Shown here piece by piece: positions 5,850 through 50,985 of a DNA stretch of 64,000 bases (within the stretch, counting starts at the first letter, position 1; the number at the start of each line of letters is the position of its first letter). The notes under the pieces are model-generated. The model had not been told where the DNA came from. It saw only the letters and a program-made list of their open reading frames with translations, and made no database searches. This DNA comes from Betaproteobacteria bacterium (lineage in GTDB: Bacteria; Pseudomonadota; Gammaproteobacteria; Burkholderiales; Burkholderiaceae_C): contig JANNFE010000166.1 of NCBI GenBank assembly GCA_031379415.1, forward strand, positions 156-64,155, read 5' to 3'. The position numbers and the translations under genes are program-made.

Positions 5850-5863
5850 CTGATCCAGATCAA
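5850..5863. promoter_or_regulatory. FNR box CTGAT-CCAG-ATCAA
   Basis: One mismatch to TTGAT-N4-ATCAA in the divergent fnr/dld intergenic region. Confidence 0.7.
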
Positions 5864-5973
5864 TCCGCGGCTGACCTGCGTGCATAGAGTGCTTCATCGG
5901 GTTGTGTTGTCGGCCGCTGTCGACTGTCTGCCCGGAAGCTGACAACACGCCCGGCCCGCGCGCGCACTGTCTC

Positions 5974-5989
5974 TGTTCGGCAACGCACG
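5974..5989. promoter_or_regulatory. CRP-like 16-bp box TGTTCG-GCAA-CGCACG
   Basis: Same motif family; 42 bp upstream of the dld ATG. Confidence 0.5.
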
Positions 5990-6031
5990 AAACCGGCAAC
6001 AGTGGCCCTGCACGGCCCCACAAGGAGACAC

Positions 6032-8859
<2,828 letters not shown>

Positions 8860-8872
<13 letters not shown>

Positions 8873-9618
8873 TCGGCGGCCAGCGCCAGGGCCCGGCTGC
8901 AAGCCTGCAGGGCGCGCAGGTCGGGAATGAGGATGACCCGTCGGCCGCGTTCACCAAAGCCGATGACGCCGCAGCGCACCAGCGCGGCCAGCGCCCGGCT
9001 CACCGATTCAAGCCGCATGCCCAGATGGTTGCCGATGTCGGCGCGTGTCAGCGGCAGGCGCACGCGGTCGGTTCGCTGGCCGCTGCCGGCCAGGGCCTCG
9101 GCCCAGCCGCACAGGAATTCGGCCACGCGTGCCGGCGCCGGCAAGGTGCAGCGCGACAGCATGGCGTCACGCCCGACGCGGATGGCGCGGCTCATCTCGT
9201 GCTGCACGCTGGCCGTGAGCGCGGCGCTGGACGTGCAGGCCGCCAGCAGGTCGTCGTGGCGCAGCGCCCAGACCTCGCCGACGTCCAGCGCCACGGCCTC
9301 GCAGCCGTAGCGGCCGGTGGCGATGCCGTCGAAGCCCAGCCAGTCACCGCGCACCTGCACACCCACCAGCTGCTGGCGGCCGTCGGCCGTGGTGTTGACG
9401 AGCTTGAAGGCGCCGGCATGGATGATGTAGAGCTGCACGAAGGGCAAACCGGCGCCGCACAGCACGTCGCCGGCGTGCACACGCTGCACGCGCACACGCA
9501 GCGCGCCGGCCAGCAGCCGCAGCATGTCACCGATGCGGTCGACGCCGAAGGCCGGCACGAAAGGCTCGCAAGGCGCCGCCGCGACGAGATGCAGTGCGAC
9601 AGCATTCGTTCGTGGCAT
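8860..9618 (-). CDS. Crp/Fnr family regulator lacking the N-terminal Fe-S cysteine cluster (FixK/DNR-like)
   Basis: cNMP-binding fold (G.FKLV..DGRQQLVG...GDWLGFDGI), HTH LTRADIGNHLGMRLESVSR; only one N-terminal Cys; alternative start at 9636. Confidence 0.85.
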
Positions 9619-9675
9619 GGATGTCCTTGGCTGCACGGGCGAAGCCGCATCTTGGGCGACACGCCGCAGCGAATC

Positions 9676-9691
9676 TGTGCGCCAACGAACA
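9676..9691. promoter_or_regulatory. CRP-like 16-bp box TGTGCG-CCAA-CGAACA
   Basis: Best match of the motif family; upstream of the second Crp/Fnr gene. Confidence 0.55.
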
Positions 9692-9719
9692 GACCCAGCA
9701 GTGGTGATTCAGCAGCGGT

Positions 9720-10328
9720 TCAGCGACGCTCGGGCAGCGCGAAGCGTGCGCGCTGCTCGGCGCGTTCGACGGCGGCTGCGAGCGCCGCGCGACGCACGTC
9801 ACCGGGCGCCAGCTGCGCCAGCAGGCGCTGCCAGTGGCGCGCCGCGGTGGCCGGATCCTGGCGCTCCCAGGCGGCGCTGCCGGCCAGGTCAAGCGCGCGC
9901 GCATGGTCGGGCGCGAGCGCGAGGGCCCGGCCCACCAGCGCTGCGGCTTCGCCGCGCAGCGTGCCGCCATCGGCCAGGCCGCGGGCCTCTGCATAGTCCA
10001 GCCACACCTCGGGGTCGCCGGCCACCCGGGGGCTGGCGGCCACGGCACGCTGGAAAGCCGCCGCCGCAGCCTGGTGGCGTTCGGCGCGCAGTTCCAGACG
10101 GGCCTTCAACACCAGGGCGCGCGCATCGTCGGGCTGGCGTCTCAGGTGCGCGTCGAGCCCCGCCAGGGCCTCAGGGCTGGCGGCGGCACCACCGTCGGCG
10201 GCGGCCTGCAGCAGCTCGGCGCTCAGCGCCAGGCGGTCGCCGCGTGCGGCATCGGGCTCACCCTGCAGGGCGTACAGGCCGCCGGCCGCGGCCAGCACAC
10301 CGGCAGCCAATGCAGCTTGCAGTCTCAC
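9720..10328 (-). CDS. CcmI/CycH/NrfG-like TPR protein for cytochrome c maturation
   Basis: N-terminal TM (AALAAGVLAAAGGLYALQG), TPR helices L..HL...PDDARA.VL.AR, W.DYAEA...G.L.GEA..L..RAL.L.P.H.RAL.LAG.AA.E; GTG start overlaps the nrfA stop (GTGA). Confidence 0.8.
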   Translation of the reverse strand: MRLQAALAAGVLAAAGGLYALQGEPDAARGDRLALSAELLQAAADGGAAASPEALAGLDAHLRRQPDDARALVLKARLELRAERHQAAAAAFQRAVAASPRVAGDPEVWLDYAEARGLADGGTLRGEAAALVGRALALAPDHARALDLAGSAAWERQDPATAARHWQRLLAQLAPGDVRRAALAAAVERAEQRARFALPERR

Positions 10329-11953
10329 TTGACCGGCCGCCGCTTGGCCATGGCGTCGTCCAGCAGCTTGATGCCGGCCTGCGCGGCCACCATGCTCTTG
10401 TTCAGCGATTCCTCGGCCTGCTGCGGGTTGTGGAAGTAGCTGCCGTTGGAGGCCGACCACCATTCCCAGTTGACATGCGCTTCCTGGTGGCGGCTGCGCA
10501 CCGCGTCGAGCTCGCCGCCGTCCACGCCCAGGTTCTGCGCCGCCTCGAACTTGTCGATCAGCCGCACCAGCCAGTACTCCGCCTTGCGCATCTTGCCGAC
10601 CCACTTGTTCTTCAGCGAGTCGATGCTGTAGACGGCCTGCTTCTCGGTCCAGCCCTTGTGGCAGGTGAGGCAGGTCTCCTGAATGTAGTGGCGCGGCGAG
10701 GTCTGCCAGTGCGAGGTGTAGGTCTTGCCGGTCTTGGCGTCCTTCATCTTCGGCATGTGGCAGCCGCTGCACTCCACGCCCTGCTTCTGGTGCGTGCTGT
10801 TGTAGAAGACCTCGGCGTCGGGGTGCTGGCCCTTCCACAGCATGGCGTCGGTGATGGCGTGCTTGAAGTCGCCGAACTTCAGGTCCTTGTAGTGCTGCTG
10901 CACCTGCGTCACGTCCTTCAGCGGGAAGTGGTTGGTGCGGCCGTCGGCCATGCCGATGGGCTGGCCGGTGGCGGTGTCGGTGCCGGGGTTGCAGTTGTAT
11001 TCCACATGGCACTGCGCGCACTGCAGCTTCACGTCGTAGCGGCTGAGCATGGCGATCTTGCGCGTGTAGCCGCGTTCGCCCATGTCCTTGACCTCGATCT
11101 TCGCGCCCTTCGGGTCCTGGTGCCACAGCGTGTCGGCCTCGGGGCGCGTCAACGCCTGGATCAGCGCGTCACGGATGATGCGCGGCCGCGCCGAGTGCGG
11201 GTCGTGGCAGAAAATGCAGTTCAACGAGTGGTTGGTGTCCTTGACGAACTCGTTGACCTTGGACAGCCGGCTCCATTTCGCCTTGGGCTCGGGGTCGCCC
11301 AGGTAGGCCCAGTCGAGGATGTGGTCGGCCGACTTGCACGACATGCACACCGGGTTGGCGGCCGCCGCGGTGCCGGGCTTGAAGGCCTTGTGCGGCTCGC
11401 CGGGGTACTGGTCGTCCAGCACGTCCCAGATCCTGAACTCGCCGCCCATGCGCGTCAGCCCGGCCTTGCCCTGGCGGTTCTGGAAGCGGCCGCCGAAGGC
11501 GCGGTCCACCACCACCTGGTCATACAGCGCGAAGGCGTGCGAGCGCGGCTCGTTGTGTTCGCGCGTGAAGCCGTGCGGGGCCAGCAGCTTGTCGAAGGCA
11601 CCGCCGGTGGCCACCGCCTTTTCCTTGTGCGCGGTCTTGTCGGTGTTCATCGTGTACAGCGTGCGGAACTGGTTCTCGTGGCAGCCGCCGCAGTTGCCGG
11701 AGTCGGTCTTCGTCGTCGGCCGGCCCTTGCCCTTGGGCTTGTGCGTGTCCAGGCCGCCGTGGCAGGCATCGCAACCCACGGTCTTGTGCGCGCTGCCGGC
11801 GTGGAAGGCCTTGACCTCCTGGTGGCAGTCGTAGCAGTCGGTGGCGTCGTAAGGCTTCGCCTTGTTCTGCGCGGCAGCCGGAGCGCCCGCCAGCAGCAGG
11901 GCGCAGGCGGCAAGCAGGCACGCCAGTGCCGTCCTCACGATGGGGTGGATCAT
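10325..11953 (-). CDS. nrfA: Octaheme cytochrome c nitrite reductase (ONR/TvNiR type, NrfA superfamily)
   Basis: Seven CxxCH (CYDCH, CDACH, CGGCH, CIFCH, CAQCH, CSGCH, CLTCH) plus catalytic CMSCK; EPRSH Arg, HVEYNC Tyr/Cys, KGQHPD His, HGS-equivalent SNGSYFHNP; signal peptide; AGGAG SD. Confidence 0.9.
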   Translation of the reverse strand: MIHPIVRTALACLLAACALLLAGAPAAAQNKAKPYDATDCYDCHQEVKAFHAGSAHKTVGCDACHGGLDTHKPKGKGRPTTKTDSGNCGGCHENQFRTLYTMNTDKTAHKEKAVATGGAFDKLLAPHGFTREHNEPRSHAFALYDQVVVDRAFGGRFQNRQGKAGLTRMGGEFRIWDVLDDQYPGEPHKAFKPGTAAAANPVCMSCKSADHILDWAYLGDPEPKAKWSRLSKVNEFVKDTNHSLNCIFCHDPHSARPRIIRDALIQALTRPEADTLWHQDPKGAKIEVKDMGERGYTRKIAMLSRYDVKLQCAQCHVEYNCNPGTDTATGQPIGMADGRTNHFPLKDVTQVQQHYKDLKFGDFKHAITDAMLWKGQHPDAEVFYNSTHQKQGVECSGCHMPKMKDAKTGKTYTSHWQTSPRHYIQETCLTCHKGWTEKQAVYSIDSLKNKWVGKMRKAEYWLVRLIDKFEAAQNLGVDGGELDAVRSRHQEAHVNWEWWSASNGSYFHNPQQAEESLNKSMVAAQAGIKLLDDAMAKRRPVK

Positions 11954-12066
11954 GGTCTTGTCTCCTCCAGGGCCGGCCAGTGCGCGCCACCCTGACGATG
12001 AAAGTGCAGGTCAGCCCGATGCTGCCCAAGCCTGGCGCCCGGGCGTCGCTGCAAGCTGAGCAGCGC

Positions 12067-12080
12067 TTGATGCATGTCAA
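12067..12080. promoter_or_regulatory. FNR box TTGAT-GCAT-GTCAA
   Basis: One mismatch to consensus, upstream of nrfA and overlapping the ccmF stop codon. Confidence 0.7.
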
Positions 12081-14014
12081 GCCGGCGATGTGTGACGGGC
12101 GGCCACGGGCTGCAGGCCGCGCCGCTGCGCGCGGCGGCCGGCCACGGCCAGCAGGCCGCCACCGGCCATCAGGGCGCAGCCGCCCCAGATCCAGCCCACC
12201 AGCGGCTTGTGCTGCAGGCGCAGCGTCCAGACGCCCTGGCCAAGGTCATCACCCAGCGTGACGTAGAGGTCGCCGAGCCAGCCGCTGGCGATGGCGGCTT
12301 CGGTCATGGCCAGTTGGGGCGTGGCGTAGTAGCGGCGCTTCTCGGGCTGCAGCGGCGGCAGGTGGCGGCCGTCGCGCGCCACGGCCACGGTGGCTCGGGT
12401 GGCCTGGTAGTTGGGCCCGGCATGCTGCATCACGCCTTGGAAGGTGAAGGCATGCCCGGCCAGCCAGGCGGTGTCGCCTGGGGCCATGCGCACGTCGGCT
12501 TCGCTCTGATGGCTGCGCACCCAGGTCACGCCCGTCACGAACACGGCCACACCCAGGTGGGCCAGCAGCATGCCCCACGCCCCCACGCCGCGGCGCGGCC
12601 GCTGGCGCACGGCCACGCCGGCCACCAACGCCACCCAGGCCGCCAGCGCCAGGCCCAGCGCCGTCATCGCTGACCCGCCAACGCCAGGCACCGCCAGCGC
12701 CACGCCCAGCACCACCGCCAGGGCCAGCGCCCAGCGCAGGCGTGTCCACAGCCCTGGCAGCGTCGCACCCTGCCACTGCGCCAGCGGTGCCGCGCCCATC
12801 AGAAACAGCACCGCCACCAGCAGCGGCACGATCACCGCTTCGAAGTAGGGCGGCCCCACCGACAGGCGGCCGAGACCCATCACTTCGAACAGCAGCGGGT
12901 ACAGCGTGCCCAGCAGCACGCTGGCTGCCGCCACCGACAGCAGCGCGGTGTGCACGAGCAGCAGCCGCTCGCGCAGGGCCGGTGCCGGCGCGCGGTGCGG
13001 TGACACGAGAGCCGGCGCTCGCAGCGCGAAGAGCACCAGCGCCGCACCCACCACCAGTGCCAGGAGAACCAGGATCAGCACGCCGCGCCGCGGGTCCAGT
13101 GCAAAGGCGTGCACCGAGCTGAGCACGCCAGAGCGCACGAGGAAGGTGCCCAGCAGCGACAGCGCGAAGCAGCCGATCGCCAGCAGCACCGCCCAAACCG
13201 AGAAGGCGCCGCGGCGCGCGCTCACGGCCAAGGCGTGCACGAGCGCCGTACCCACCAGCCACGGCATGAAGGCGGCGTTTTCCACCGGGTCCCAGAACCA
13301 CCAGCCGCCCCAGCCCAGTTCACCGTAGGCCCACCAGCTGCCCAGCGCCACGCCCGCGGTGAGGCAACACCAGGCCAGCGTGGCCCAGGGCCGCGCCGCC
13401 ACGGCCCAGCCGCGGCCGGCAGCGCCGCCCAGCAAGGCGGCCATCGCGAAGGCAAAGACCACGCCGAAGCCGACATACCCCATGTAGAGCAGCGGCGGGT
13501 GCAGGACCATGCCGGGGTCCTGCAGCAGCGGGTTGAGGTCGCGCCCCTGCGCCGGCACCGGAAAGACACGCAGGAAGGGGTTGGACGCCACCAGCACGAA
13601 GCTCAGGAAGCCCGCCGCCAGCAGACCCAGCACGCCCAGCACGCGGGCGCGCATCACCGTGTCGAGGCCCGCGTTCCAGCGCAGCAAGGCCAGGGTCCAC
13701 GCCGACTGCAGCACGGCCCACAGCAGCAGCGAGCCTTCGTGCGAACCCCAGCTGGCCGCGAAGCGATAGGCCACCGGCAGCTGCGAGTTGGAGTTCTCGG
13801 CCACGTTGCGCACCGAGAAGTCGTTGTGCAGGAAAGCCAGCACCAGGCTGGCCCACGCCAGCAGCACGCACAGCGCCTGCGCGGCGGCCAGCGGCGTGGC
13901 CATCGCCATCCAATCCGCGCGGCCACGGCTGGCGCCGGCCAAGGCCAGCGTGCCCTGGCACAGCGCCAGCAGCGCGGCCAGGATGAGGACGAAGTGACCT
14001 GCCTCGGCAATCAT
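12077..14014 (-). CDS. ccmF: Heme lyase CcmF/NrfE family
   Basis: WGSHEGSLLLW, GRDLNPLLQDPGMVLHPP.LY.GY, WWD motif WGGWWFWDPVEN, GTFLVRSGVL.SVHAFA, LL.H.G; start MIAEAGHF at 14014. Confidence 0.92.
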   Translation of the reverse strand: MIAEAGHFVLILAALLALCQGTLALAGASRGRADWMAMATPLAAAQALCVLLAWASLVLAFLHNDFSVRNVAENSNSQLPVAYRFAASWGSHEGSLLLWAVLQSAWTLALLRWNAGLDTVMRARVLGVLGLLAAGFLSFVLVASNPFLRVFPVPAQGRDLNPLLQDPGMVLHPPLLYMGYVGFGVVFAFAMAALLGGAAGRGWAVAARPWATLAWCCLTAGVALGSWWAYGELGWGGWWFWDPVENAAFMPWLVGTALVHALAVSARRGAFSVWAVLLAIGCFALSLLGTFLVRSGVLSSVHAFALDPRRGVLILVLLALVVGAALVLFALRAPALVSPHRAPAPALRERLLLVHTALLSVAAASVLLGTLYPLLFEVMGLGRLSVGPPYFEAVIVPLLVAVLFLMGAAPLAQWQGATLPGLWTRLRWALALAVVLGVALAVPGVGGSAMTALGLALAAWVALVAGVAVRQRPRRGVGAWGMLLAHLGVAVFVTGVTWVRSHQSEADVRMAPGDTAWLAGHAFTFQGVMQHAGPNYQATRATVAVARDGRHLPPLQPEKRRYYATPQLAMTEAAIASGWLGDLYVTLGDDLGQGVWTLRLQHKPLVGWIWGGCALMAGGGLLAVAGRRAQRRGLQPVAARHTSPA

Positions 14015-14113: not shown

Positions 14114-14127
14114 TTGACTCACGTCAA
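14114..14127. promoter_or_regulatory. FNR-type box TTGAC-TCAC-GTCAA
   Basis: Perfect palindromic arms in the divergent ccmF/hemerythrin intergenic region. Confidence 0.72.
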
Positions 14128-14179
14128 CGCAGCGCCCCTCTGTGGCCGAAGAATCACAGCCCGACCTCCATCACCCACC

Positions 14180-14665
14180 ATGGCCAACACCAAGTTGCCT
14201 GCCACCCGCCCGCCGCACGCGGCGCGCCCTGCCCTGCCTTCGGCGCACACGCTGGACAAGACACACCACGAGGTGCTGCACCACCTGGAGCAACTGGCCG
14301 CGCTCGTGGCGCAGCTGGACGAAGCCGGCAGCACCGAGCCGCTGCGCGCGCTGGCCGCCGACATCTGCCGCTACTTCGACGGCCCGGCCCGCACCCACCA
14401 CGAAGCCGAGGAGCAGCGCCTGTTCCCGCGTCTGCAGGACCACCCCGACACCACGCTGGTGGACCATGTGCGCCGCCTGCAGCAGGAGCATGGCTGGCTG
14501 GAAGACGAGTGGCTGGAACTCGGCCCGCAGCTGCAGGCCGTGGCGCGCGGCTTCACCTGGGCCGATGCCGAAGCGCTGCGCCTGGCGGTGCCGGCCTTCA
14601 CGCAGCTCTACCGCGAGCACATTGCGCTGGAAGAGGCCATCGTCTACCCCGCCGGCAAGGCCTGA
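14180..14665 (+). CDS. Hemerythrin-like (HHE) domain protein
   Basis: H..(THHEV), HH..EE..LFP.L, L.QEH, Y.EHI.LEE..VYP diiron-binding pattern; ATG at 14180. Confidence 0.85.
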   Translation: MANTKLPATRPPHAARPALPSAHTLDKTHHEVLHHLEQLAALVAQLDEAGSTEPLRALAADICRYFDGPARTHHEAEEQRLFPRLQDHPDTTLVDHVRRLQQEHGWLEDEWLELGPQLQAVARGFTWADAEALRLAVPAFTQLYREHIALEEAIVYPAGKA

Positions 14666-16647
14666 GCCACCAGCTCGGCGATGTCGCGTGACTGTGCGCT
14701 GGCGCCTTCGATGGCGCCCAGGCCGTCGGCCATCATCACCGCGCAATAGGGGCAGGCGGTGGCGATGATGGCCGGTGCAGCCGTCAGCGCCTGCTGCACA
14801 CGGGCCACGTTGATGCGCGTGCCGATGTTCTCTTCCAGCCACATGCGCCCGCCGCCGGCGCCGCAGCACATGGCCTTCTCGCGCGACAGCGCGAACTCCA
14901 GCGGCGCGTCGCTGCACAAGCGCTGCAGCACGGCGCGCGGCGCGTCGAACTCGCCGTTGTGGCGGCCCAGATAACAGGGGTCGTGAAAGATCACGCGCTG
15001 CAACCGCCGCTGAACCTGGATGCGACCCTGCGCCATGAGCTCGGCGATGAGCTGCGTGTGGTGCAACACCTCGTAGTGGCCGCCGAACTCGGGGTACTCG
15101 TTGCGCAGCGTGTTGAAGGCATGCGGGTCGCAGGTGACGATGCGCTTCACGCCCAGCTCGTTCAAGGTCTGCACCAGGCCGCCCGCCAATTGCTGGAACA
15201 GCAGCTCGTTGCCCAGCCGCCGCACACATTCGCCGGTAGAACCTTCACGCGGCCCCAGCACGCCGAAGCGCAGCCCGGCGTGCTGCAGGATGCTGACGAA
15301 GGCGCGCGCGATCTTCTGGCCGCGCGGGTCGAAGGACATCGCCGAGCCGACGTAGAACAGCAGCTCCAGGCCCTCGGCATCGGCCTTCGTGCGCACCACC
15401 GGCACGCCCAGGCCTTGCGCCCAGTCGCCGCGCTGCGATGACTGCAGGCCCCAGGGGTTGCCCTGGGCTTCGTAGGCCTCGAAGAGCTTCTTCAGCTCGT
15501 GCGGAAACTGGCCCTCGATCATCACCTGGTGCTGGCGCAGGCGGAAGAACTTGTCCAGGTGCTCCAGCTCGATGGGGCAGGCCGCTTCGCAATAGCCGCA
15601 GGTGGTGCAGGCCCACAAGGTCTCGGGCGCGATGACCGTGCCCACCAGCGCCGGCAACTCGCCCTGGGGATCGTGCGCGACGATGCGTGCGCGCTCGGCC
15701 AGCAGGTGGTGCTTCAGGCTGTCGTTGACCATCTTCAGCGACAGCGGCTTGCCCGTCAGGTGCGTGGGGCAGGCGTCCTTGCAGCGGCCGCACTCGGTGC
15801 AGGTGAAGGCGTCCAGGCCCTCCTTCCAGTTCAGGTCGAGCGCGGTGCGCGCACCGGCGCGCATCTCGGCCTCGTCGGTGGCGGCCATGAGCTGCTCGAT
15901 ATCGACACGCGGCACCCGGTGGGCCGGCCGGCCGCGCCGGAAGAAGAGCGCCGGCAGGGCGGTGACGATGTGGAAGTGCTCGCCTGCCGGCAGCAGCACC
16001 AGGAAGCTGAACACGGTGAGCATCTGCAGCCAGTAGGCCAGCACCATGCCGGTGGCCTGCGCGCCCGGCGACAACCCCTGCAGCGCCTGCGCCACCGCCG
16101 CACCGGCAAAGGCCCAGTCGCGTTCATGCGCGATGCCCGGCACGCTGCCGGCCCGCTGCAGGAAGCGCAGGCCGTCGAAGGCCAGGTCGGTGAGCATGAT
16201 GGCCAGGATCAGGCCCAGCACCCCCAGCGCCTCGCGGTTGCGCTCCAGCCGCGCCGGGTGCTGCACCAAACGGCGGTGCAGGGCGTAGAGCACGGCGGCC
16301 GTGACGGCCAGCTCCACGGCATCCTTGAAGGCCGCGAAGGGCCCACCGAAGGCCGGCGGGAAGACGAAGTCGACATCCCAGCCGATGGCGATGAGCTGGA
16401 TCTTGCGCAGCAGCAGTGACAGGAAGCCGATGAAGATCACCGTGTGCATGAGCCCCGGCCGCCACTCGCGCCGCAGCATGCGCTGCTGCAACAGGCCGTT
16501 GAGCAGCACGCTCTGCAGGCGCGCGCCCGGGTGGTCGGTGCGCTGCACCGGCTGCAGCGCACGCACGATGCCCAGCTTGCGCCAGGCCAGGGCGCAAAAG
16601 CCCGCCAGGGCCAGCAGCATCAGCAGCGTGAGCGCGGCGGGTCCCAT
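14644..16647 (-). CDS. Membrane-bound Fe-S oxidoreductase, FadF/heterodisulfide reductase (HdrE/D)-like
   Basis: NarI-like TM part (G.MH..IF.GF, H...A), CTECGRCKDACP and CTTCGYCEAACP clusters, C-terminal CCG domain (HDPCYLGR, MCCGAGGG, TACPYC). Confidence 0.85.
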   Translation of the reverse strand: MGPAALTLLMLLALAGFCALAWRKLGIVRALQPVQRTDHPGARLQSVLLNGLLQQRMLRREWRPGLMHTVIFIGFLSLLLRKIQLIAIGWDVDFVFPPAFGGPFAAFKDAVELAVTAAVLYALHRRLVQHPARLERNREALGVLGLILAIMLTDLAFDGLRFLQRAGSVPGIAHERDWAFAGAAVAQALQGLSPGAQATGMVLAYWLQMLTVFSFLVLLPAGEHFHIVTALPALFFRRGRPAHRVPRVDIEQLMAATDEAEMRAGARTALDLNWKEGLDAFTCTECGRCKDACPTHLTGKPLSLKMVNDSLKHHLLAERARIVAHDPQGELPALVGTVIAPETLWACTTCGYCEAACPIELEHLDKFFRLRQHQVMIEGQFPHELKKLFEAYEAQGNPWGLQSSQRGDWAQGLGVPVVRTKADAEGLELLFYVGSAMSFDPRGQKIARAFVSILQHAGLRFGVLGPREGSTGECVRRLGNELLFQQLAGGLVQTLNELGVKRIVTCDPHAFNTLRNEYPEFGGHYEVLHHTQLIAELMAQGRIQVQRRLQRVIFHDPCYLGRHNGEFDAPRAVLQRLCSDAPLEFALSREKAMCCGAGGGRMWLEENIGTRINVARVQQALTAAPAIIATACPYCAVMMADGLGAIEGASAQSRDIAELVAQALPAG

Positions 16648-17655: not shown

Positions 17656-17736
17656 GCCTCACTCCTTGCAGCGCCAGGCCAGGCGACCACGGCGCCCGGT
17701 GTGTGCGCATGATCGGAGCGGCGCGCTGGGCGCAGG

Positions 17737-17750
17737 ACGATCTGGATCAA
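17737..17750. promoter_or_regulatory. FNR-like box ACGAT-CTGG-ATCAA
   Basis: One perfect half-site in a divergent intergenic region. Confidence 0.35.
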
Positions 17751-17790: not shown

Positions 17791-17804
17791 TTGACATGGA
17801 TCAG
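17791..17804. promoter_or_regulatory. FNR box TTGAC-ATGG-ATCAG
   Basis: Two mismatches; in the divergent region between the Coq10-cNMP gene and the HyaE-like gene. Confidence 0.55.
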
Positions 17805-17867
17805 CCGGCCTGCGGGCAGCCCGCTCAGACTGCACGTCCACCCAGGCCACCGTCGAAAGGATGCGCG

Positions 17868-18299
17868 ATCAGCACGCCCGATCTGCCATCCGACCTGCAC
17901 CCGCTGCTGGCGCGGCTGGTGGCGGAAACCGGCGCCTCGGTGCTGGACGCCGAGGCCTTCGACGCCTGGGCGGCGCGGCCCGGTCCCGCCATGGCCTTGT
18001 TCGCCGAGGACGCCGACCGCTACAAGGAAGCGCTGGACCTCGCGGCCATCGTGCCCGAACTGCACGCCACCGCCGGCATGCGCTTCCGTGTCGCGCTGCT
18101 GCGGCCCGCCGCCGCGCACGTGCTGGCCGCACGCTACGGCTTCGAACGCTGGCCGGCCTTCGTCATCCTGCGCGACGGCCACTACCTCGGCGCCGTGAAC
18201 GCCTTCCGTGACCGCGGCGCCTACGTAGGCGAACTGCAGCGCCTGCTGAACGCAGCGGCCGGTACGAGCAGCCGGGCTGATGCAGGTCAAGGTCGATAG
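17868..18299 (+). CDS. HyaE/HupG-like thioredoxin-fold chaperone (start codon uncertain)
   Basis: HPLLARLV...G..VLD...FD.W.A..G.A.ALF.ED..RYKE.LDLA.IVPEL, A.RYGF.RWPA.V.LRDG.YLG pattern of HyaE; the best-placed in-frame start behind the AAAGGA SD is ATC at 17868. Confidence 0.7.
   Translation: MSTPDLPSDLHPLLARLVAETGASVLDAEAFDAWAARPGPAMALFAEDADRYKEALDLAAIVPELHATAGMRFRVALLRPAAAHVLAARYGFERWPAFVILRDGHYLGAVNAFRDRGAYVGELQRLLNAAAGTSSRADAGQGR
18277..18290. promoter_or_regulatory. FNR box CTGAT-GCAG-GTCAA
   Basis: Two mismatches; about 100 bp upstream of the monoheme cytochrome gene. Confidence 0.55.
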
Positions 18300-19489: not shown

Positions 19490-19503
19490 CTGATGTGAAT
19501 CAA
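19490..19503. promoter_or_regulatory. FNR box CTGAT-GTGA-ATCAA
   Basis: One mismatch; in an AT-rich promoter patch upstream of mtrC. Confidence 0.7.
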
Positions 19504-25830: not shown

Positions 25831-25844
25831 TTGATCCACCGCAA
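25831..25844. promoter_or_regulatory. FNR-like box TTGAT-CCAC-CGCAA upstream of nuoA
   Basis: Perfect left half-site, two mismatches on the right; follows a CAGGGC-N6-GCCCTG hairpin after the mtrB stop. Confidence 0.45.
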
Positions 25845-39684: not shown

Positions 39685-39738
39685 GGCAGGGCTCCCGAAG
39701 GCGGTCGGGCGATTCTGCGGCGCAGGCGGGCGCGCGGC

Positions 39739-39752
39739 TTGACCTTGCGCAA
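39739..39752. promoter_or_regulatory. FNR-like box TTGAC-CTTG-CGCAA
   Basis: Identical 14-mer also at 42988; 54 bp upstream of the cNMP gene. Confidence 0.5.
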
Positions 39753-39759
39753 GGCGCCG

Positions 39760-41106
39760 TCAGCCCGCCGCGGCCACCACGCGCTGCAGCTTGCCGCTGC
39801 GGCCCAGCGGCAGTGCAGCGGCCACGCGCGTGGTGATGTGCAGGCCCACCACGCCCTGCTGTCGCGCGAAGTCGACCAGCAGCTCGCGGCACCGCTCGCG
39901 CACGGCCGGCGTGTGCGGCACGCCGGGGCCCAGCGTCAGGCACCAGCGCTGCGCGGCCTGCTGGCGCAGCTGGAAATCGAAGACACCGGCGCCGTCTTCC
40001 AGCACCGTGGTCAGCGCCAGCGGCAGCAGCATCAGCGGCCGGCCGTCGCGGCCGGGCGCCACCAGCACGTCGTCGCGGCGCCCCTGCACCTGCAGCGTGG
40101 GCAGCGGCGAGCCGCAGGGGCAGCGCACGACGTCGAAGGCGATGCGGTCGCCGATGTCGAAGCGGATCAGCGGCTGCACATGGTTGGCCAGGTTGGTGAG
40201 CAGCGTGGTGTGCGAGACCTGGCCCGCCGGCAGCGGCCGGTGCCGCGCGTCCACCGCTTCCAGGATCACCCAGTCGCTGTTCACGTGCAGGCGCTGCTGC
40301 GCACATTCCCAGGCGATGGGCAGGAACTCCGAAGCGCCGTAGCTGTTGCGCACCGTGCAGCCGAAGGCGCGCTCGATGTGCGTGCGCATGGCCGGCGTCA
40401 GTGTCTCGCCGCCGGTCCACAGCTCGGTCGGGCGGATGTGCAGCGTGCCGCGCTGCTGTTCTTCGGCCAGCAGCACCGCCGCCGTGGGGTAGGTGGCCAG
40501 CACGCTGGGCGCCCAGGCGTTGAGCTGCTCCACCAGGGCCGGCGTCGGCTGCAGGATCGAGAAGCTGCGCAAGCCGTGGGCCAGCCAGGGGTTGAGCACG
40601 CGCAGGCGCTGCACCGTCACCTGGCTGGCAAAGTGGCCGCCGACGGCGCCGACGAAGGCATAACGCTCGAACAGGCCGAAAGGATCGAACAGCCGGGCCC
40701 ATGGCCGCGTGCTGCTGCGTCGTGTGGCCTCCAGCGCGTCGTACACGGCCATGGCCTGCGGATCCTGCACGAAGATGCCGGGCTGCCCGGTGCTGCCGGA
40801 ACTTTCCCAGACGTGGTGACGGCCGAGGAAGCGGTCGCCGATGCGCTGCGCATCGGCGCAGAAGGCGCGCAGTGCCGGCAGCGTGACCTCAGGGTCGGCC
40901 AGGTGGTCGGCGAAGTGGGCCATCAGCTGCGGCTTGCCGCTCACCGGCAGCGCCGACAGGGGCGTGGCGCCGGGGTCGCGGCCGGCCAGCAGGCGGCGGT
41001 AATGCGGCGTGCATTGCGCCGCCGTCAGCAGATCTGCCAGCCGCTGCGCCTGCCGGTCTGCGATGCCCTGGGGCGTCGCGTGGCTTGCCTCGGCGATGTC
41101 GAGCAT
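39760..41106 (-). CDS. Phenylacetate-CoA ligase (PaaK)-like adenylate-forming enzyme
   Basis: L..LP...K..LM..F, ESSGSTGQP, YPT, GGE.L, YG.SE, LTNL.N..QPLIR.D.GD, C.CGSP, GR.DD, SGK. Confidence 0.85.
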   Translation of the reverse strand: MLDIAEASHATPQGIADRQAQRLADLLTAAQCTPHYRRLLAGRDPGATPLSALPVSGKPQLMAHFADHLADPEVTLPALRAFCADAQRIGDRFLGRHHVWESSGSTGQPGIFVQDPQAMAVYDALEATRRSSTRPWARLFDPFGLFERYAFVGAVGGHFASQVTVQRLRVLNPWLAHGLRSFSILQPTPALVEQLNAWAPSVLATYPTAAVLLAEEQQRGTLHIRPTELWTGGETLTPAMRTHIERAFGCTVRNSYGASEFLPIAWECAQQRLHVNSDWVILEAVDARHRPLPAGQVSHTTLLTNLANHVQPLIRFDIGDRIAFDVVRCPCGSPLPTLQVQGRRDDVLVAPGRDGRPLMLLPLALTTVLEDGAGVFDFQLRQQAAQRWCLTLGPGVPHTPAVRERCRELLVDFARQQGVVGLHITTRVAAALPLGRSGKLQRVVAAAG

Positions 41107-41123: not shown

Positions 41124-42899
41124 TCAGTCGGTGTAGCACTGGCGCACGTAGGCGCCCGGCGCCGCACCCAGCCCCAACACCGCCGACACCGCCGGCAACC
41201 GCCGGCCGCGCCGCAGCGGCGACGAGTGCGCCGCCAGCCAGCGCTGCCAGGCCGGCCACCACGAGCCTTCGTGGCGCGCTGCGGCGGCCTGCCATTCGTC
41301 GGAGCTGCTCCACGGCCCCTGCGCTGGCCGCAGGGCGATGCGATAGCTGCGCCCGGCATGCCCCGGCTCGCTGACGATGCCGGCGTTGTGGCCACCGCTG
41401 GCCAGCACGAAGGTGATCTCGGCGTCGCACAGGCGGTGCAGCTGGTAGACCGAGGGCCAGGGCGAGACATGGTCGCGCTCGGTGCCGACCAGGAAGACGG
41501 GCCTGCGGATGTCGCCCAGCGACACCGCACGACCGTCGACGCGGTAGCTGCCGATGGCGAGCTGGTTCTCCAGGTACAGCGTCTGCAGGTATTCGCGGTG
41601 CATGCGCGCCGGCATGCGCGTGGTGTCGGCGTTCCAGGCCATCAGGTCGTTCGGCTGCTCACGTTCGCCCAGCAGGACCTCGCGCATGCGCCGCGTCCAC
41701 ACCAGGTCGCGCGAGTGCAGGAACTGGAAGGAACCGGCCATCTGCCGGCCCGTCAGGTAACCGGGGCCGCGCGTCACCTCGTCCAGGAAGTGGAGCTGGC
41801 TCTCGTCGATGAAGAGGCCCAGCTCGCCGGGCTGCGAGAAGTCGGTCTGCGCGGCCAGCAGCGTCAGCGTGGCCAGCGGCGGCAGGCCGTCGGCGCTGGC
41901 GTCACCGGCGAGCGCCGCTGCGGCGATGGCCAGCAGCGTGCCACCCAGGCAGTAGCCCATCGCGTGCACCGGGCGGCTTCGACCATCATCCAGCCTGCCG
42001 ATGGCACGCAGGGCGTCGAACACGCCCAGGCGCAGGTAGTCATCCATCGTCAGCTCGCGGTCCTCGGCGCCGGGGTTGCGCCACGACAGCATGTACACGG
42101 TGTGGCCCTGGCGCACGAGGTAGCGCACCAGGCTGTTGTGCGGCGACAGGTCGAGGATGTAGTACTTCATGATCCACGACGGCACGATGAACACCGGCTC
42201 GGGATGCACTTTCGCCGTCTGCGCGTCGTAGCGTATGAGCTCGACGAGGTGGTTGCGGTACACCACCTGCCCGGGTGTCACCGCCACGTCGCGCCCGACC
42301 TCGAAGTGCGGCGCCGGCCCTTGGTCGGCCACGTCGGGCAGCCCGGCCACGTCGGCCAGCCAGTGGCGTGCGCCGCGCAGCAGGTGCGTGCCGCCCGAAG
42401 CCACGGCGTCGTTCAGCGCCACCGGATTGGTGGGCAGCCAGTTGGCCGGCGCCGCCATGCCCAGCCACTGGCGCGCAAAGAACTGCGTCAGCGCGGCGTG
42501 GTGCGCGGTCATGCCGGGCACGCTGGCAGCTTCGCGCCAGTAGGCCTCGCTGTTCCTGAAGCCGCGGCGCACCAGGTTCCAGGGCCACTCGGCCCAGGCC
42601 GGATCGCGGAAGCGCGGGTCGTCGTCGACGGCGCCGCTCGGTGCCTCGTCGTGGCCGGCGCCGGGACGCCACATGTCGGTGGCCAACTGCCGGGCCCGCG
42701 CCGCCAATGCCAGCTGGCGGCCAGGCGACAGCGCCAGGTGCCAGCCCCAGTCGGCCCAGGCCAGCGCCAGCGACACCGGCGACAGCCCGCCGGTCCACTG
42801 CGCCGCCTGGGCATGCAGCAGGCGGTCGAGCCGGTCGGTGAGCGCTTCGGCGACGGCAGACGCTTCCCCGGCAGGCAGGCGGACAGTTCTTGGTTTCAT
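41124..42899 (-). CDS. phaC: Polyhydroxyalkanoate synthase (class I-like, with PhbC_N domain)
   Basis: T.GLSP.SL.LA..DW..HL..SPG.Q, DDPRF.DP.W..WP, F.VGRDVAVTPG.VV, P.WIMKYYILDL, lipase box GYCLGG, D(H), SGGHNAG. Confidence 0.92.
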   Translation of the reverse strand: MKPRTVRLPAGEASAVAEALTDRLDRLLHAQAAQWTGGLSPVSLALAWADWGWHLALSPGRQLALAARARQLATDMWRPGAGHDEAPSGAVDDDPRFRDPAWAEWPWNLVRRGFRNSEAYWREAASVPGMTAHHAALTQFFARQWLGMAAPANWLPTNPVALNDAVASGGTHLLRGARHWLADVAGLPDVADQGPAPHFEVGRDVAVTPGQVVYRNHLVELIRYDAQTAKVHPEPVFIVPSWIMKYYILDLSPHNSLVRYLVRQGHTVYMLSWRNPGAEDRELTMDDYLRLGVFDALRAIGRLDDGRSRPVHAMGYCLGGTLLAIAAAALAGDASADGLPPLATLTLLAAQTDFSQPGELGLFIDESQLHFLDEVTRGPGYLTGRQMAGSFQFLHSRDLVWTRRMREVLLGEREQPNDLMAWNADTTRMPARMHREYLQTLYLENQLAIGSYRVDGRAVSLGDIRRPVFLVGTERDHVSPWPSVYQLHRLCDAEITFVLASGGHNAGIVSEPGHAGRSYRIALRPAQGPWSSSDEWQAAAARHEGSWWPAWQRWLAAHSSPLRRGRRLPAVSAVLGLGAAPGAYVRQCYTD

Positions 42900-42987
42900 G
42901 GCAGCTACCTCGTCCGCTGGCCGGGCCCGATCGCACAGGCGAGCGGCGGCATGAATGCCATCTTGTGGCGCCGCGCGGCGGCCCGAG

Positions 42988-43001
42988 TTGACCTTGCGCA
43001 A
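42988..43001. promoter_or_regulatory. FNR-like box TTGAC-CTTG-CGCAA
   Basis: In the divergent phaC/cfa intergenic region; identical to the 39739 site. Confidence 0.5.
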
Positions 43002-43055
43002 CGCCGCGCGCACGCTGCGCCTTATGTTGGCGGCTCTGCAAGGAGATGCGCGGCC

Positions 43056-44306
43056 ATGCCTGCACTCACCGCATTGCTCGACACCCGGCTGGCGCAGCTG
43101 CCGCGCAGCCTGTCGCTGGTCTGGCCCGGCGGGCACCTCGGCGCCGCTGCGGGCGCCGTGCGCCTGACGCTGCGCCACCGCCGCGCCCTGGCCTGGCTGG
43201 CGCGCGGGCGCATCGGCGCCCTGGCCGACGCCTACGTCAACGGCGAGCTCGAGATCGACGGCGAGATGCGCGACGTGATGGCCGTGGCTGCCGCGCTGGT
43301 GGGCGACCCCGTGGCCCTGGGCTCGGCCACCACCTGGCCGCGCTGGCTGCAGACCTGGCGCTCGCGCTGGTTGCACGCGAGCCGGCGCGACGCCGAGCAG
43401 GTGCGCTTCCACTACGACGTCGGCGACCGCTTCTACGCGCTGTGGCTGGACCCGCGGCGCGTCTACTCCTGCGCCTACTGGGCCAGCGAGGCGCTGACGC
43501 TGGCGCAGGCCCAGGAAGCCAAGCTCGAACACGTCTGCCGCAAGCTGCGGCTGGCGCCGGGGCTGCGCCTGCTGGACATCGGCTGCGGCTGGGGCGCGCT
43601 GCTGCTGTGGGCCGCCGAACATCATGGCGTGAACGCGGTCGGCATCACGCTGTCGCGCAACCAGCACGCGCACGTGAGCCGGCTGATCGAGGAACGCGGC
43701 CTCGGTGGCCGCGTGGAAGTACGACTGGCCGACTACCGCGAGCTGCCGCCCGGGGGCGACTTCGACGCCATCGCCTCCATCGGCATGTTCGAGCATGTGG
43801 GCCGCGCAAGGCTGCCGGCCTACTTTGCCGGCCTGCATGGCCTGCTGAAGCCGGGCGGCCTGGTGCTGAACCACGGCATCACGGCTGGTGGCCTGCACAA
43901 CCGCCAGCTGGGTGCGGGCATGGGCGACTTCATCGAGAAGCACATCTTCCCCGGCGGTGAGCTGGAGCACGTGTCCTGCGTCACCGAAAGCCTGGCGCGC
44001 GGCGGCCTGGAACTGCTGGACAGCGAGAACCTGCGCCCGCACTACGCGCGCACGCTGTGGGCCTGGTCAGGCGCACTGGAGCGCCAGCTGGCGGCAGCGC
44101 GCGCGCTCACCAGCGAACGCACGGTGCGCGCCTACCGCCTGTACCTGGCCGGCTGCGCGATGTGCTTCGAACAGGGCTGGCTGTCGCTGCACCAGCTGCT
44201 GGCCAGCCGGCCGGACGCGATAGGCGACCATGGACAGATGCGCGGGGCGCAGTCGGTGTATCCATTCAGGCGCGGGTACATGTACGGCTCGTGTCGGGTG
44301 GGGTAG
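43056..44306 (+). CDS. cfa: Cyclopropane-fatty-acyl-phospholipid synthase family methyltransferase
   Basis: HYDVG..FY.LWLD.R.VYSCAY, LAQAQ.AKL..VCRKL.L.PG.RLLDIGCGWG, S.GMFEHVG, IFP.GEL, ENLR.HYA.TL..W; AAGGAG SD. Confidence 0.9.
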   Translation: MPALTALLDTRLAQLPRSLSLVWPGGHLGAAAGAVRLTLRHRRALAWLARGRIGALADAYVNGELEIDGEMRDVMAVAAALVGDPVALGSATTWPRWLQTWRSRWLHASRRDAEQVRFHYDVGDRFYALWLDPRRVYSCAYWASEALTLAQAQEAKLEHVCRKLRLAPGLRLLDIGCGWGALLLWAAEHHGVNAVGITLSRNQHAHVSRLIEERGLGGRVEVRLADYRELPPGGDFDAIASIGMFEHVGRARLPAYFAGLHGLLKPGGLVLNHGITAGGLHNRQLGAGMGDFIEKHIFPGGELEHVSCVTESLARGGLELLDSENLRPHYARTLWAWSGALERQLAAARALTSERTVRAYRLYLAGCAMCFEQGWLSLHQLLASRPDAIGDHGQMRGAQSVYPFRRGYMYGSCRVG

Positions 44307-49400: not shown

Positions 49401-49413
49401 TGCGGCAGCGCCG

Positions 49414-50937
49414 CTAGCGCCAGCGCGCGGCGATGGCGGGCAGGTCCGGCGCCTGGTCGGTGTCGATGCGCATCGCGGCTTCGTCGGGCGCCAGGGGCTC
49501 GTCGATGCCGAGCTGGAAGTCCAGCACCGACAGATCGGCTTCCGAGGCGTCGTCGCCGCGCTGCTGGCGCGCCTGGATGCGCTGGCGCAGGGTGGCTATG
49601 GCGGCCTGGCAATCGAGGATGAGAAAGGGCACGCCAGCCTCTAGTGCCAGGCCGCGCATCTGCGCGCGTTCGCTGCGCCGCAGGCAGGCCGCGTCGATGA
49701 TCACCGGGTGCCCGGCGGCCAGCAGCCCGCGCGCCAGTTCGGCCAGACGGCCGTAGGTGCGCGTGTTGGCGTCCTGTCCGTAGATGCCACCCGCCACGTG
49801 CGCGCCCGAAGCCTGCAGGGCCGACAAGCCGTGCAGCCGCTTGCGCTCGACATCCGAGCGCAGCCGCACCGCACCGGTGAGTTCCAGCAAGCCCTGGGTG
49901 ACGAAGGTCTTGCCCGAACCGGACAAGCCATGCGTCACCAGCAGGCGCGGTGGCGCGGGCTGGAAGGCGACCCGGCGCGCCAGCGCAAGGTAGTGCTCGG
50001 CTGCAGACCCCGCAGCCGCACCCTGCGCAGCCTCGATGCGCGCCACCATCGCCCGCACCAGCGCGCGGTGCACGAGGTAGGGCCGCAACACCGGCACGCC
50101 GGCATGGTCGCCACTGGCGTCGAGCCAGGCGTTGACGAAGCGCCAGGCCAGCGCCGGCCGGCCATGAGCCAGCAGGTCCATGGTCATGAAGGCGATGTCG
50201 CTCTGCATGTCGATCCAGCGCAGCGCGGGGTCGAATTCCAGGCAGTCGAAGGCCGTGACACCATCGTCCAGCACCACGGCATTGCGCAGATGCAGGTCAC
50301 CATGGCATTCGCGCACGGCACCGTCCTGCTGGCGCCGCTGCCACAGCGGGCGCAGCGCAGGCACCACGCCGTCGAACCCGCGCTGCAGGTCGGCCACATC
50401 CGCACCGCGCTGCTGCAGGCGGCGCAGCACGGCGCGGGTCTCTTCGGCCACCTCGTCGGCACTGCCCCAGCGGCTGCCTGGCGGCGCTACGGGCGCGTCG
50501 CGGTGCACGGCCGCCACGCGTGCGGCCAGGGCGTCCAGATGCGCCGGCTGCAGCGTGCCGTCGGTCAGTTTCTCGCTCAGCAGCGCGCGGGGCGGGAAGC
50601 GGCGCATCTTCAGCGCAAACTCGATGGCCGGGCCTTCGCCGCCGATTCGTGGCGCGTCCACGCTGCCGGTGATGGCCACGACCTCGAGGTAGATCGAAGG
50701 CGCCCAGGGCCGGTTGAGTCTGAGTTCCTCGTCGCAGAAATGGCGCCGCGCGGCCAGCTTGGAGAAGTCCAGGAAGCCCAGATTGACCGGCTTCTTGATC
50801 TTCCAGGCGGTGTCGCCCACCAGCAGCACCCAGGAGATGTGGGTCTCGATGCGCTGCACGCTGGCGCCGCCCCACTGCGCCTGCAGCGCATCCACCAGCG
50901 CGCCACCCGGCTCTTCGATCAGCATGCGCTCGAGCAT
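49414..50937 (-). CDS. Bifunctional aminoglycoside-phosphotransferase-like / AAA_33 kinase protein
   Basis: ETHISWV.L.G..A.KIKKPV..GFLDFS, RECHGDLHL.N, FDC.EF...LRWID..D.AF..MDL, Walker A GLSGSGKT, LRSD.ERKRL; start 50937 or 50925. Confidence 0.88.
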   Translation of the reverse strand: MLERMLIEEPGGALVDALQAQWGGASVQRIETHISWVLLVGDTAWKIKKPVNLGFLDFSKLAARRHFCDEELRLNRPWAPSIYLEVVAITGSVDAPRIGGEGPAIEFALKMRRFPPRALLSEKLTDGTLQPAHLDALAARVAAVHRDAPVAPPGSRWGSADEVAEETRAVLRRLQQRGADVADLQRGFDGVVPALRPLWQRRQQDGAVRECHGDLHLRNAVVLDDGVTAFDCLEFDPALRWIDMQSDIAFMTMDLLAHGRPALAWRFVNAWLDASGDHAGVPVLRPYLVHRALVRAMVARIEAAQGAAAGSAAEHYLALARRVAFQPAPPRLLVTHGLSGSGKTFVTQGLLELTGAVRLRSDVERKRLHGLSALQASGAHVAGGIYGQDANTRTYGRLAELARGLLAAGHPVIIDAACLRRSERAQMRGLALEAGVPFLILDCQAAIATLRQRIQARQQRGDDASEADLSVLDFQLGIDEPLAPDEAAMRIDTDQAPDLPAIAARWR

Positions 50938-50971
50938 GGCACGGCGCCCGAACGCACCGTTGAGCACAGGT

Positions 50972-50985
50972 TTCATCCAGATCAA
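50972..50985. promoter_or_regulatory. FNR box TTCAT-CCAG-ATCAA
   Basis: One mismatch; in the divergent kinase/korC intergenic region. Confidence 0.6.

Follow-up and report, generated by a model that had tools for sequence, protein, structure and literature searches.

Eleven FNR-type boxes and a predicted anoxia regulon in an anaerobic respiration island of a Burkholderiales genome

Gene content of the window and the eleven boxes

The window considered here is a stretch of 64,000 nucleotides (nt), contig C23:156-64155 of a 5.16 Mb assembly (430 contigs, roughly 70% GC) whose nearest named relatives are Rhizobacter/Rubrivivax-type Burkholderiales metagenome-assembled genomes. It holds an island with an MtrCAB conduit, a NapC/CymA cytochrome, an octahaem nitrite reductase, a second complex I and an fnr gene of its own. 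A first-pass annotation, made from the letters alone, had pointed to eleven FNR-like 14-mers in the promoters of this island and read them as one anoxia regulon. A direct check of the letters finds all eleven in place, and enrichment, promoter geometry and conservation of these sites make for a well-supported in silico regulon that appears to be genuine, dense and of FNR type. Genes were called with a codon-usage model trained on the same genome and named with NCBIfam and Pfam, giving the following features.

4994-5746, minus strand: fnr (island-borne), Crp/Fnr regulator with a Cys cluster
6032-8872, plus strand: dld-like FAD/Fe-S dehydrogenase
8860-9558, minus strand: P0002, second Crp/Fnr-family protein
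9720-10298, minus strand: ccmH-like gene
10325-11953, minus strand: onr, NrfA-like multihaem (octahaem) nitrite reductase
12077-14014, minus strand: ccmF/nrfE
14180-14665, plus strand: hemerythrin
14644-16647, minus strand: HdrD-like gene
16666-17655, minus strand: fusion of Coq10-START and cyclic nucleotide monophosphate (cNMP) domains (coq10-cNMP)
17919-18299, plus strand: hyaE-like gene
18392-18697, plus strand: monohaem cytochrome, mtoD-like
18735-19358, plus strand: NapC/CymA
19625-22402, plus strand: mtrC
22399-22707, plus strand: small HhH protein
22708-23667, plus strand: mtrA
23697-25790, plus strand: mtrB
25939-39168, plus strand: nuoA-N, second complex I
39184-39684, minus strand: cNMP-binding protein
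39760-41106, minus strand: F390-synthetase-like ligase
41124-42899, minus strand: phaC, polyhydroxyalkanoate (PHA) synthase
43056-44306, plus strand: cfa
49414-50967, minus strand: AAA_33 protein
51095-55808, plus strand: korC-like/korA/korB operon

The gene names of the first pass were essentially right by these profiles, except that its "kinase" is the AAA_33 protein and that MtrC begins at 19625 and not at 19826. The nuo operon behind mtrB (25939-39168) is a rare second isozyme. Among 120 species of the genus 18 have an orthologue of its nuoA, as does just 1 of the 150 genera that were sampled across the family, so that a family-wide search was of no use for footprinting and genus-level searches were made instead; its NuoA lies far under the NuoA equivalog cut-offs (58.8 bits vs. 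163).

The eleven boxes are described relative to TTGAY-N4-RTCAA (Y, pyrimidine; R, purine; N, any base), and are listed here with the candidate -10 elements that face them.

5850..5863, plus strand: box CTGATCCAGATCAA, one mismatch, between fnr (minus) and the dld-like gene (plus)
5885-5890, plus strand: candidate -10 TAGAGT, class II geometry towards dld
12067..12080, minus strand: exact box TTGACATGCATCAA, read towards onr
12019-12024, minus strand: candidate -10 CAGCAT of onr, box centre near -61.5 (class I)
14114..14127, plus strand: exact box TTGACTCACGTCAA, between ccmF/nrfE (minus) and the hemerythrin gene (plus)
14149-14154, plus strand: candidate -10 AAGAAT, class II towards hemerythrin
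17737..17750, minus strand: weak box TTGATCCAGATCGT, two mismatches, towards coq10-cNMP
17709-17714, minus strand: hexamer GATCAT, 22 nt after box 17737
17791..17804, plus strand: box TTGACATGGATCAG, one mismatch
17826-17831, plus strand: candidate -10 CAGACT, class II towards the hyaE-like gene
18277..18290, plus strand: box CTGATGCAGGTCAA, one mismatch, mtoD-cymA
18313-18318, plus strand: candidate -10 CAGAAT, class II promoter of mtoD-cymA
19490..19503, plus strand: box CTGATGTGAATCAA, one mismatch, mtrC-(HhH)-mtrA-mtrB
19525-19530, plus strand: candidate -10 TAGATT, class II promoter of mtrC-(HhH)-mtrA-mtrB
25831..25844, plus strand: hybrid box TTGATCCACCGCAA, second nuoA-N operon
25867-25872, plus strand: -10-like TCTGAT, class II-type promoter for nuoA-N
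39739..39752, minus strand: hybrid box TTGCGCAAGGTCAA, towards the cNMP-binding gene 39184-39684
39712-39717, minus strand: candidate -10 CAGAAT, class II towards the cNMP-binding gene
42988..43001, no strand assigned: hybrid box common to the divergent phaC (minus) and cfa (plus)
42960-42965, minus strand: candidate -10 CAAGAT on the phaC side, class II spacing from box 42988
43023-43028, plus strand: candidate -10 TATGTT on the cfa side, class II spacing from box 42988
50972..50985, plus strand: doubtful box TTCATCCAGATCAA upstream of korC-like/korAB, with TTCAT, G3 changed to C in the key half-site
51038-51043, plus strand: candidate conserved -10 TAGACT of korC, box near -71.5 (class I-like)

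The concentration of these boxes in short intergenic gaps, also claimed earlier, is borne out by our gene calls, which place ten of the eleven between genes and one, 18277, in a gene end (it falls within the final 23 nt of the hyaE-like gene and 115 nt before mtoD). Two sites, 12067 and 14114, match TTGAY-N4-RTCAA exactly (0.03 expected in the window), and 5850, 17791, 18277, 19490 and 50972 carry one mismatch. Sites 25831, 39739 and 42988 are TTGAY-N4-CGCAA hybrids that have the right half CGCAA in common, 39739 and 42988 being identical 14-mers, while 17737 has two mismatches and a single good half-site. At one mismatch or fewer the window has nine matches where 1.15 are expected, seven of them among the eleven and the other two coding (2922 and 3516). 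Between 5.7 and 43 kb a box lies within or just upstream of every promoter-bearing gap except 9559-9719, the gap at 18300-18391 being served by the box at 18277; in the gaps of the window outside that stretch there is no box save in 50968-51094.

Enrichment, promoter geometry and conservation of the boxes

To describe the background of the motif we compared densities in intergenic and coding DNA by mismatch class. A 22-bp position weight matrix trained with the window left out was given up, as the 6-12 training sites were too few and the flanks and spacer were over-fitted, and these mismatch classes with their density ratios were used in its place. The exact motif occurs eight times in the assembly, all eight intergenic and two of them in the window, and not once in the 4.74 Mb of coding sequence; intergenic DNA makes up only 8% of the genome. 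With up to one mismatch there are 42 intergenic sites genome-wide, six of which fall within the 3,074 nt of intergenic DNA of the window, where 0.27-0.31 would be expected (Poisson P about 1e-6). None of the eleven sites matches the perfect TTGAT-N4-ATCAA at its ten defined positions, two do so exactly once positions 5 and 10 are read as Y/R, and the stricter form was dropped, its two-mismatch sites being at background density. The degenerate consensus of the first pass was the right one for this genome, since the box of ccoN shows Y/R at the same positions.

When TTGAY is fixed as one half, the over-represented intergenic partner halves are GTCAA, ATCAA and, unexpectedly, CGCAA. The TTGAY-N4-CGCAA form has 12 intergenic occurrences genome-wide (about 0.5-0.8 expected) against 6 coding ones, and three in the window against 0.07 expected (P about 5e-5). 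It is clear from this enrichment of the CGCAA partner half that the three "GCAA" sites (25831, 39739 and 42988) are a real second box class and not sloppy matches. The CTGAY one-mismatch class has 8 intergenic members against 3.2 expected; the TTCAY class, to which TTCAT belongs, shows no genome-wide enrichment (4 intergenic vs. 3.3 expected). A different palindrome of the window, the TGTGCG-N4-CGCACA operator at 1630, 5974 and 9676, is not enriched either, with 6 matches at up to two mismatches where shuffled sequences give 15.

The first pass had expected class II sites centred near -41.5. We scored -10-like hexamers as NANNNT (with A second and T sixth) starting 21-22 nt after the box, and by this measure the spacing fits class II at seven sites (5850, 14114, 17791, 18277, 19490, 39739 and 42988), besides nuoA with its poor hexamer; onr fits a position near -61.5, and korC one near -71.5, its box lying 52 nt before a very strongly conserved TAGACT. 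The box centre lies 28.5-29.5 nt before the hexamer, that is at -40.5 to -41.5 if the hexamer starts at -12. Such a hexamer is found at this spacing for 10.7% of random intergenic positions, 13.5% of coding look-alikes and 43% of all intergenic sites genome-wide, so that seven of the eleven corresponds to a binomial P of about 4e-5. In the orthologue stacks the hexamers are themselves conserved: TAGA(T/C)T at mtrC, nA(G/C/A)AAT at mtoD, GAA(C/G)AAT at hemerythrin, TAGAGT beside fnr and, in most orthologues, TAGCCT at nuoA.

Conservation was followed at orthologous loci in about 120 species-level genomes of the same genus, which were oriented and then scanned; as the null we took 2.8%, the rate at which -400..+30 regions of genes in the source genome contain a site. 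The box upstream of onr is present in 11 of 11 orthologues, 10 of them exact, with CA(G/C)CAT kept 40-43 nt after it. At mtoD all 11 orthologous loci have a box (CTGAY-N4-RTCAA in 10, GTGAC in L089), and the -10 nA(G/C/A)AAT keeps class II spacing in 8 of them and is shifted downstream by about 18-20 nt in L085, L086 and L090. The mtrC box is found at 5 of 5 syntenic loci as CTGAY-N4-ATCAA, followed after 21 nt by TAGA(T/C)T in L083-L086 and by GACACT at that spacing in L090, and boxes also lie upstream of mtrC in four more genomes (G017, G002, G010 and G020). For nuoA, 13-15 of the 18 genus orthologues have a box of some type, which in 12 of the 18 is TTGATC-N3-(A/C)GCAA, always in the same orientation and usually followed after 21-22 nt by TAGCCT; L070 has a box identical to that of the window, plus TCTGATGC. 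The hemerythrin promoter is conserved in 25 of 29 homologues as a box, 21 nt and GAA(C/G)AAT. At phaC, 5 of 6 close orthologues have TTG(G/C)N-N4-ATCAA pointing to the gene, and beside fnr the box, its 21-nt spacer and TAGAGT recur in L185, L188, G272 and G207. At korC only about 7 of 29 orthologues have an upstream box, which is still above the null.

Conservation is thus seen for onr, hemerythrin, mtoD, mtrC, nuoA, phaC and fnr/dld, and in part for korC. The boxes of mtoD, mtrC and nuoA are kept across genomes whose proteins are only 45-85% identical and whose flanking DNA is not conserved; since the box and one downstream hexamer can be aligned and the flanks cannot, we take this to be a footprint rather than recent common descent. 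Conservation, promoter geometry or both back nine of the eleven sites. We grade 12067, 14114, 18277, 19490, 25831 and 42988 as strong, 5850, 17791 and 39739 as good (geometry together with partial or untestable conservation), and 17737 and 50972 as weak.

Several promoters have further details. The hemerythrin promoter is near-invariant, mostly TTGATCNNGCGCAA followed by 21 nt and GAACAAT, and is the best-conserved variant-box target in the genus; the hemerythrin-domain gene itself (14180-14665) has a paralogue in the source genome (G000 C327:6744-7223). Box 14114 may have a second -10, CATTGT, towards ccmF. Upstream of onr a conserved GGCAGCAT was considered as a sigma-54 promoter and rejected, its GG-N10-GC spacing not being kept across orthologues. 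Box 17791 read in reverse is the conserved CTGATCCATGTCAA upstream of coq10-cNMP, where L027, L028, L029 and L031 have CTGATCCA(G/T)(A/G)TCAA. Box 17737 is not significant individually and its conservation is not clear; a clean assignment of 17737 and 17791 to coq10 by synteny-based footprinting failed because gene order is shuffled and box-gene distances vary. The cNMP-binding gene 39184-39684 is absent from the relatives fetched for comparison. In L082, L085, L086 and L090 an extra hybrid box (TTGACCTAACGCAA or TTGACGCAGCGCAA) lies between mtoD and cymA, about 70 nt upstream of cymA; the mtoD-cymA gap of the window is 37 nt only and has no such box. At korC-like/korAB the very strongly conserved TAGACT and an AGGAGAC ribosome-binding site recur in about 25 of 29 orthologues (window 50986-51094, L155-L183), and the 5' leader between the two varies in length, from about 50 to 90 nt.

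The island is not confined to this genome. The gene set fnr, dld, onr, mtoD-cymA-mtrCAB, nuo2 and hemerythrin recurs within 55-90 kb at G231:C2:318-392 kb, G272:C3:165-225 kb and G207:C11:35-130 kb, and its shuffled order and orientation suggest an accessory island that is mobile or plastic, rather than operons in a fixed arrangement. These equivalent islands (74, 60 and 95 kb) contain 7, 8 and 17 intergenic boxes against 0.4-0.9 expected, and each has its own fnr, 73-79% identical to the window copy.

Regulators and the reading of the boxes

The product of the island fnr gene scores 229.8 bits against the NCBIfam Fnr model NF008365, by a narrow margin above the cut-off of 228, and 197 bits against the solved Aliivibrio FNR (PDB 5CVR); its next PDB relative, FixK2 (4I2O), is at 79.8 bits. 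It has all four cysteine ligands, with Cys14/18/21/27 in a Cys-X3-Cys-X2-Cys-X5-Cys region and a central Cys121, the segments SSCEVVCSSCNLREIC and SQVCVIP being aligned to the Cys positions of 5CVR, and its recognition helix LETVSRTFSKF (ETVSR) aligns with ETISRLLGRF of the solved protein. The protein has every sequence feature that defines FNR, and we predict an O2-sensing [4Fe-4S] regulator that is the probable reader of the boxes. A second fnr with a Cys cluster, the housekeeping paralogue at C101:1640-2377, is 67% identical to the island copy; its neighbours are hemN on one side and the ccoNOQP/ccoGHIS cluster on the other (C101:99-9137 of G000, a contig other than that of the window). Its recognition helix differs from that of the island copy in one residue (ETVSRAFSKF vs. 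ETVSRTFSKF). The ccoN box is TTGACCGGGGTCAA (TTGAC-N4-GTCAA) and the hemN/fnr region has two one-mismatch boxes; judged by them, the predicted classical FNR regulon of the source organism uses the same Y/R-degenerate box. P0002 (8860-9558, minus strand) is a third protein of the E--SR type, with an ESVSR helix, no Cys cluster and a position beside the onr/ccm genes; a scan of the window gaps found no box in the region upstream of its gene, and it is a possible co-regulator.

The analysis shows that the sites exist, are enriched and conserved, and have promoter geometry; which protein binds them, that it activates and that it responds to oxygen are inferred. We consider it likely that the sites are operator/activator sites of an FNR-type factor (Crp/Fnr, E--SR helix), above all the island FNR (4994-5746), its housekeeping paralogue, or both. 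The one anoxia regulon of the first pass is in our analysis the best-supported in silico reading, in view of the island FNR, the enrichment and the conserved boxes, and its suggestion that nuo and Mtr share this regulon gains from the conserved boxes of mtoD, mtrC and nuoA with a -10-like hexamer at class II distance. Because conserved FNR boxes precede almost every operon, the island is very probably switched on as a whole when oxygen runs out. In the proposed mechanism the holo-dimer would, under anoxia, bind TTGAY-N4-RTCAA and the tolerated variants CTGAY-N4-RTCAA and TTGAY-N4-CGCAA, at about 41.5 bp (class II) or about 61.5-71.5 bp (class I) upstream of the transcription start, and would thereby bring sigma-70 RNA polymerase to promoters whose -10, of the nAGAnT type, is only weak and which lack a good -35. 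The genes predicted to be induced together are those for the dld-like dehydrogenase, the octahaem nitrite reductase and its haem lyase, hemerythrin, the hyaE-like protein, mtoD-cymA, mtrC-mtrAB, the second complex I, the cNMP-binding protein, and phaC and cfa.

Some observations weigh against this reading or narrow it. Individual one-mismatch classes are only about 2-fold enriched genome-wide, and sites 5850, 17791 and 50972 therefore depend on their context and not on their own score. Two of the eleven sites (17737 and 50972) are weak, and three are the TTGAY-N4-CGCAA variant and not classical FNR boxes. The nuoA hexamer of the window and of L070 is the poorer TCTGAT, which lacks the usual A at position 2. 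The -10 elements were assigned by sequence only and the transcription start sites that go with them are predicted positions, the gene calls come from our own codon-usage model, and the orthologue counts share ancestry and are not phylogenetically independent. Finally, the genome has three Crp/Fnr proteins of the E--SR type, whose specificities sequence cannot separate.

The last point bears on the most serious alternative, namely that the island holds two or more overlapping regulons in which FNR reads the palindromic boxes and another Crp/Fnr paralogue the asymmetric ones (TTGAY-N4-CGCAA, perhaps also CTGAY-N4-RTCAA), either P0002 as a Dnr/NnrR-like protein or an FNR copy with altered preference, in an ANR-to-DNR-style cascade with a second signal such as nitric oxide or nitrite. 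The asymmetry is indeed conserved in orientation, with the distal half CTGA at mtoD, mtrC, coq10 and dld, TTGC or TTGG at phaC, and the proximal half GCAA at nuoA. Such constancy at nuoA, phaC, mtoD and mtrC suggests function and not drift, and it makes a specialised second regulator worth testing, with P0002 as the obvious candidate on account of its ESVSR helix and its place next to the onr/ccm genes. The TTGCG half-site also resembles half-sites reported for FixK2- and NnrR-type boxes. P0002 is, however, disfavoured as the reader of the hybrid boxes by its distribution: only 22 of 120 genomes of the genus have an orthologue (with 43% identity or more), 17 of the 20 genomes with a hybrid hemerythrin box lack it, and it is missing from the G231, G272 and G207 islands, where hybrid boxes occur. 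Canonical and hybrid boxes moreover interchange at the hemerythrin promoter, which has the palindromic form in the window and L231 and the hybrid in about 20 other genomes; the recognition helices of the two FNR paralogues are almost identical; and asymmetric sites are found outside the island too. A division into two regulons thus seems unlikely to us. Given that P0002 is mostly absent, that the boxes interchange at hemerythrin and that the paralogue helices are near-identical, the economical reading would be that FNR itself, as one paralogue or the other, tolerates variant half-sites, perhaps with some tuning of affinity.

A repressing or merely anti-activating role of FNR at some sites, with nuo2 for example shut off anaerobically and no uniform set that is on in anoxia, appears to us quite improbable. 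The E. coli nuo operon is negatively affected by FNR and ArcA, the -10 candidate of nuoA in the window is poor, and box 5850 may autoregulate fnr negatively as in E. coli. Yet most nuoA orthologues place the box 21-22 nt before a good TAGCCT, an activating class II position and not one over the -10 or +1, and the same geometry is found at mtoD, mtrC, hemerythrin, the cNMP-binding gene and phaC. As for chance, that is, AT-containing palindromes that turn up without any regulatory role in short gaps between genes where AT is more frequent, look-alikes with one and two mismatches do occur near background density genome-wide, and 17737 and 50972 would fit this account. For the set of sites it is scarcely credible in the face of an exact motif that is absent from coding DNA, an enrichment in the window at P of about 1e-6, boxes kept in as many as 25 of 29 orthologous promoters where the null rate is 2.8%, and a -10 at fixed spacing; for nine of the eleven sites we regard it as already refuted.

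Going beyond a common FNR-type switch, we can offer only tentatively a picture in which the island is a self-contained, horizontally shuffled module for anaerobic electron disposal with its own FNR paralogue. Conserved and deliberately asymmetric boxes (distal CTGA at mtoD, mtrC and coq10, proximal GCAA at nuoA) might here tune a private induction hierarchy. In particular, a dedicated complex I that is phylogenetically rare might be co-activated with MtoD-CymA-MtrCAB, so that a single chain under the FNR switch would lead from NAD(P)H to an acceptor outside the cell, or run in reverse.

Relation to known systems and significance

FNR regulons and class II promoters belong to textbook knowledge, and what is specific here is the membership of the regulon rather than its type. 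The island system resembles that of E. coli and Aliivibrio FNR in the four Cys ligands, the E--SR helix, the box core with its 14-bp geometry, the 21-22 nt between box and -10, and the presence of boxes at the classical targets ccoN and hemN in the source genome. It differs from the TTGAT-N4-ATCAA box at -41.5 of those organisms in having Y/R and not T/A at positions 5 and 10, in the many conserved sites that are asymmetric, with CTGA or TTGCG in one half, and in its predicted targets, among which MtrCAB, MtoD/CymA, a second complex I and PHA synthase are not known as FNR targets in E. coli. FNR lowers nuo expression in E. coli, which is the opposite of what the activating position of the island nuo box suggests. 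The boxes of the FixK2, FnrL and ANR-DNR systems of alpha- and gammaproteobacteria are likewise of the TTGA-N6-TCAA type, tolerate TTGC/GCAA half-sites and serve paralogue cascades with indistinguishable boxes. FixK2 and DNR, unlike the island regulator, lack the FNR Cys cluster, and in contrast to the ANR-DNR arrangement the candidate second-tier regulator P0002 is missing from most genomes with variant boxes.

To our knowledge, nothing is known of the regulation of MtrCAB/MtoD in Burkholderiales (Group 4), for which Shewanella CRP is the sole model. In Shewanella oneidensis, omcA-mtrCAB is controlled by cAMP-CRP, with a minor role of EtrA/FNR (Kasai et al., 2015, PMC4417206; review PMC4468914). 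A Crp/Fnr-family activator ties Mtr expression to oxygen limitation there, as is predicted here, through CRP and a TGTGA-type site in the one case and through TTGA-type sites beside an island FNR gene in the other; no CRP-type box was found here. The Mtr cluster survey of Baker et al. (2022, PMC8805035) describes Group 4 as dominated by Burkholderiales and carrying mtoC/mtoD; it neither analyses regulation nor mentions FNR. In the literature library searched, no paper pairs "FNR box" with "mtrCAB".

Conserved class II FNR promoters at mtoD-cymA and mtrCAB would predict that extracellular electron transfer takes place specifically under anoxia, with the rare second complex I, the octahaem nitrite reductase and PHA synthesis induced alongside, and the finding also argues for a functional link of the second nuo operon to the Mtr conduit. 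Box, -10 and predicted transcription start provide testable promoters for about ten operons, and annotation in this lineage ought to count TTGAY-N4-CGCAA and CTGAY-N4-RTCAA among the FNR-type sites. We expect these predictions to be of moderate interest to the extracellular electron transfer field.

The Mtr genes themselves show some features apart from their promoters. The MtrC start codon, ATG 19625, has a GAGGAG ribosome-binding site before it and a lipobox, LAAC, after it, and a collagen-like linker, GPAGPNGPAGPAGPAGPAGPSGPAGPAGPSG, is placed between the lipid anchor and the decahaem domain (window 19625-19800). Pseudogenes, assembly errors or matches that continue beyond the stop codon may account for the single in-frame TAG or TGA that is reported within the match for several NapC/CymA homologues of relatives (G209, G229, G019, G205, G010 and G221).

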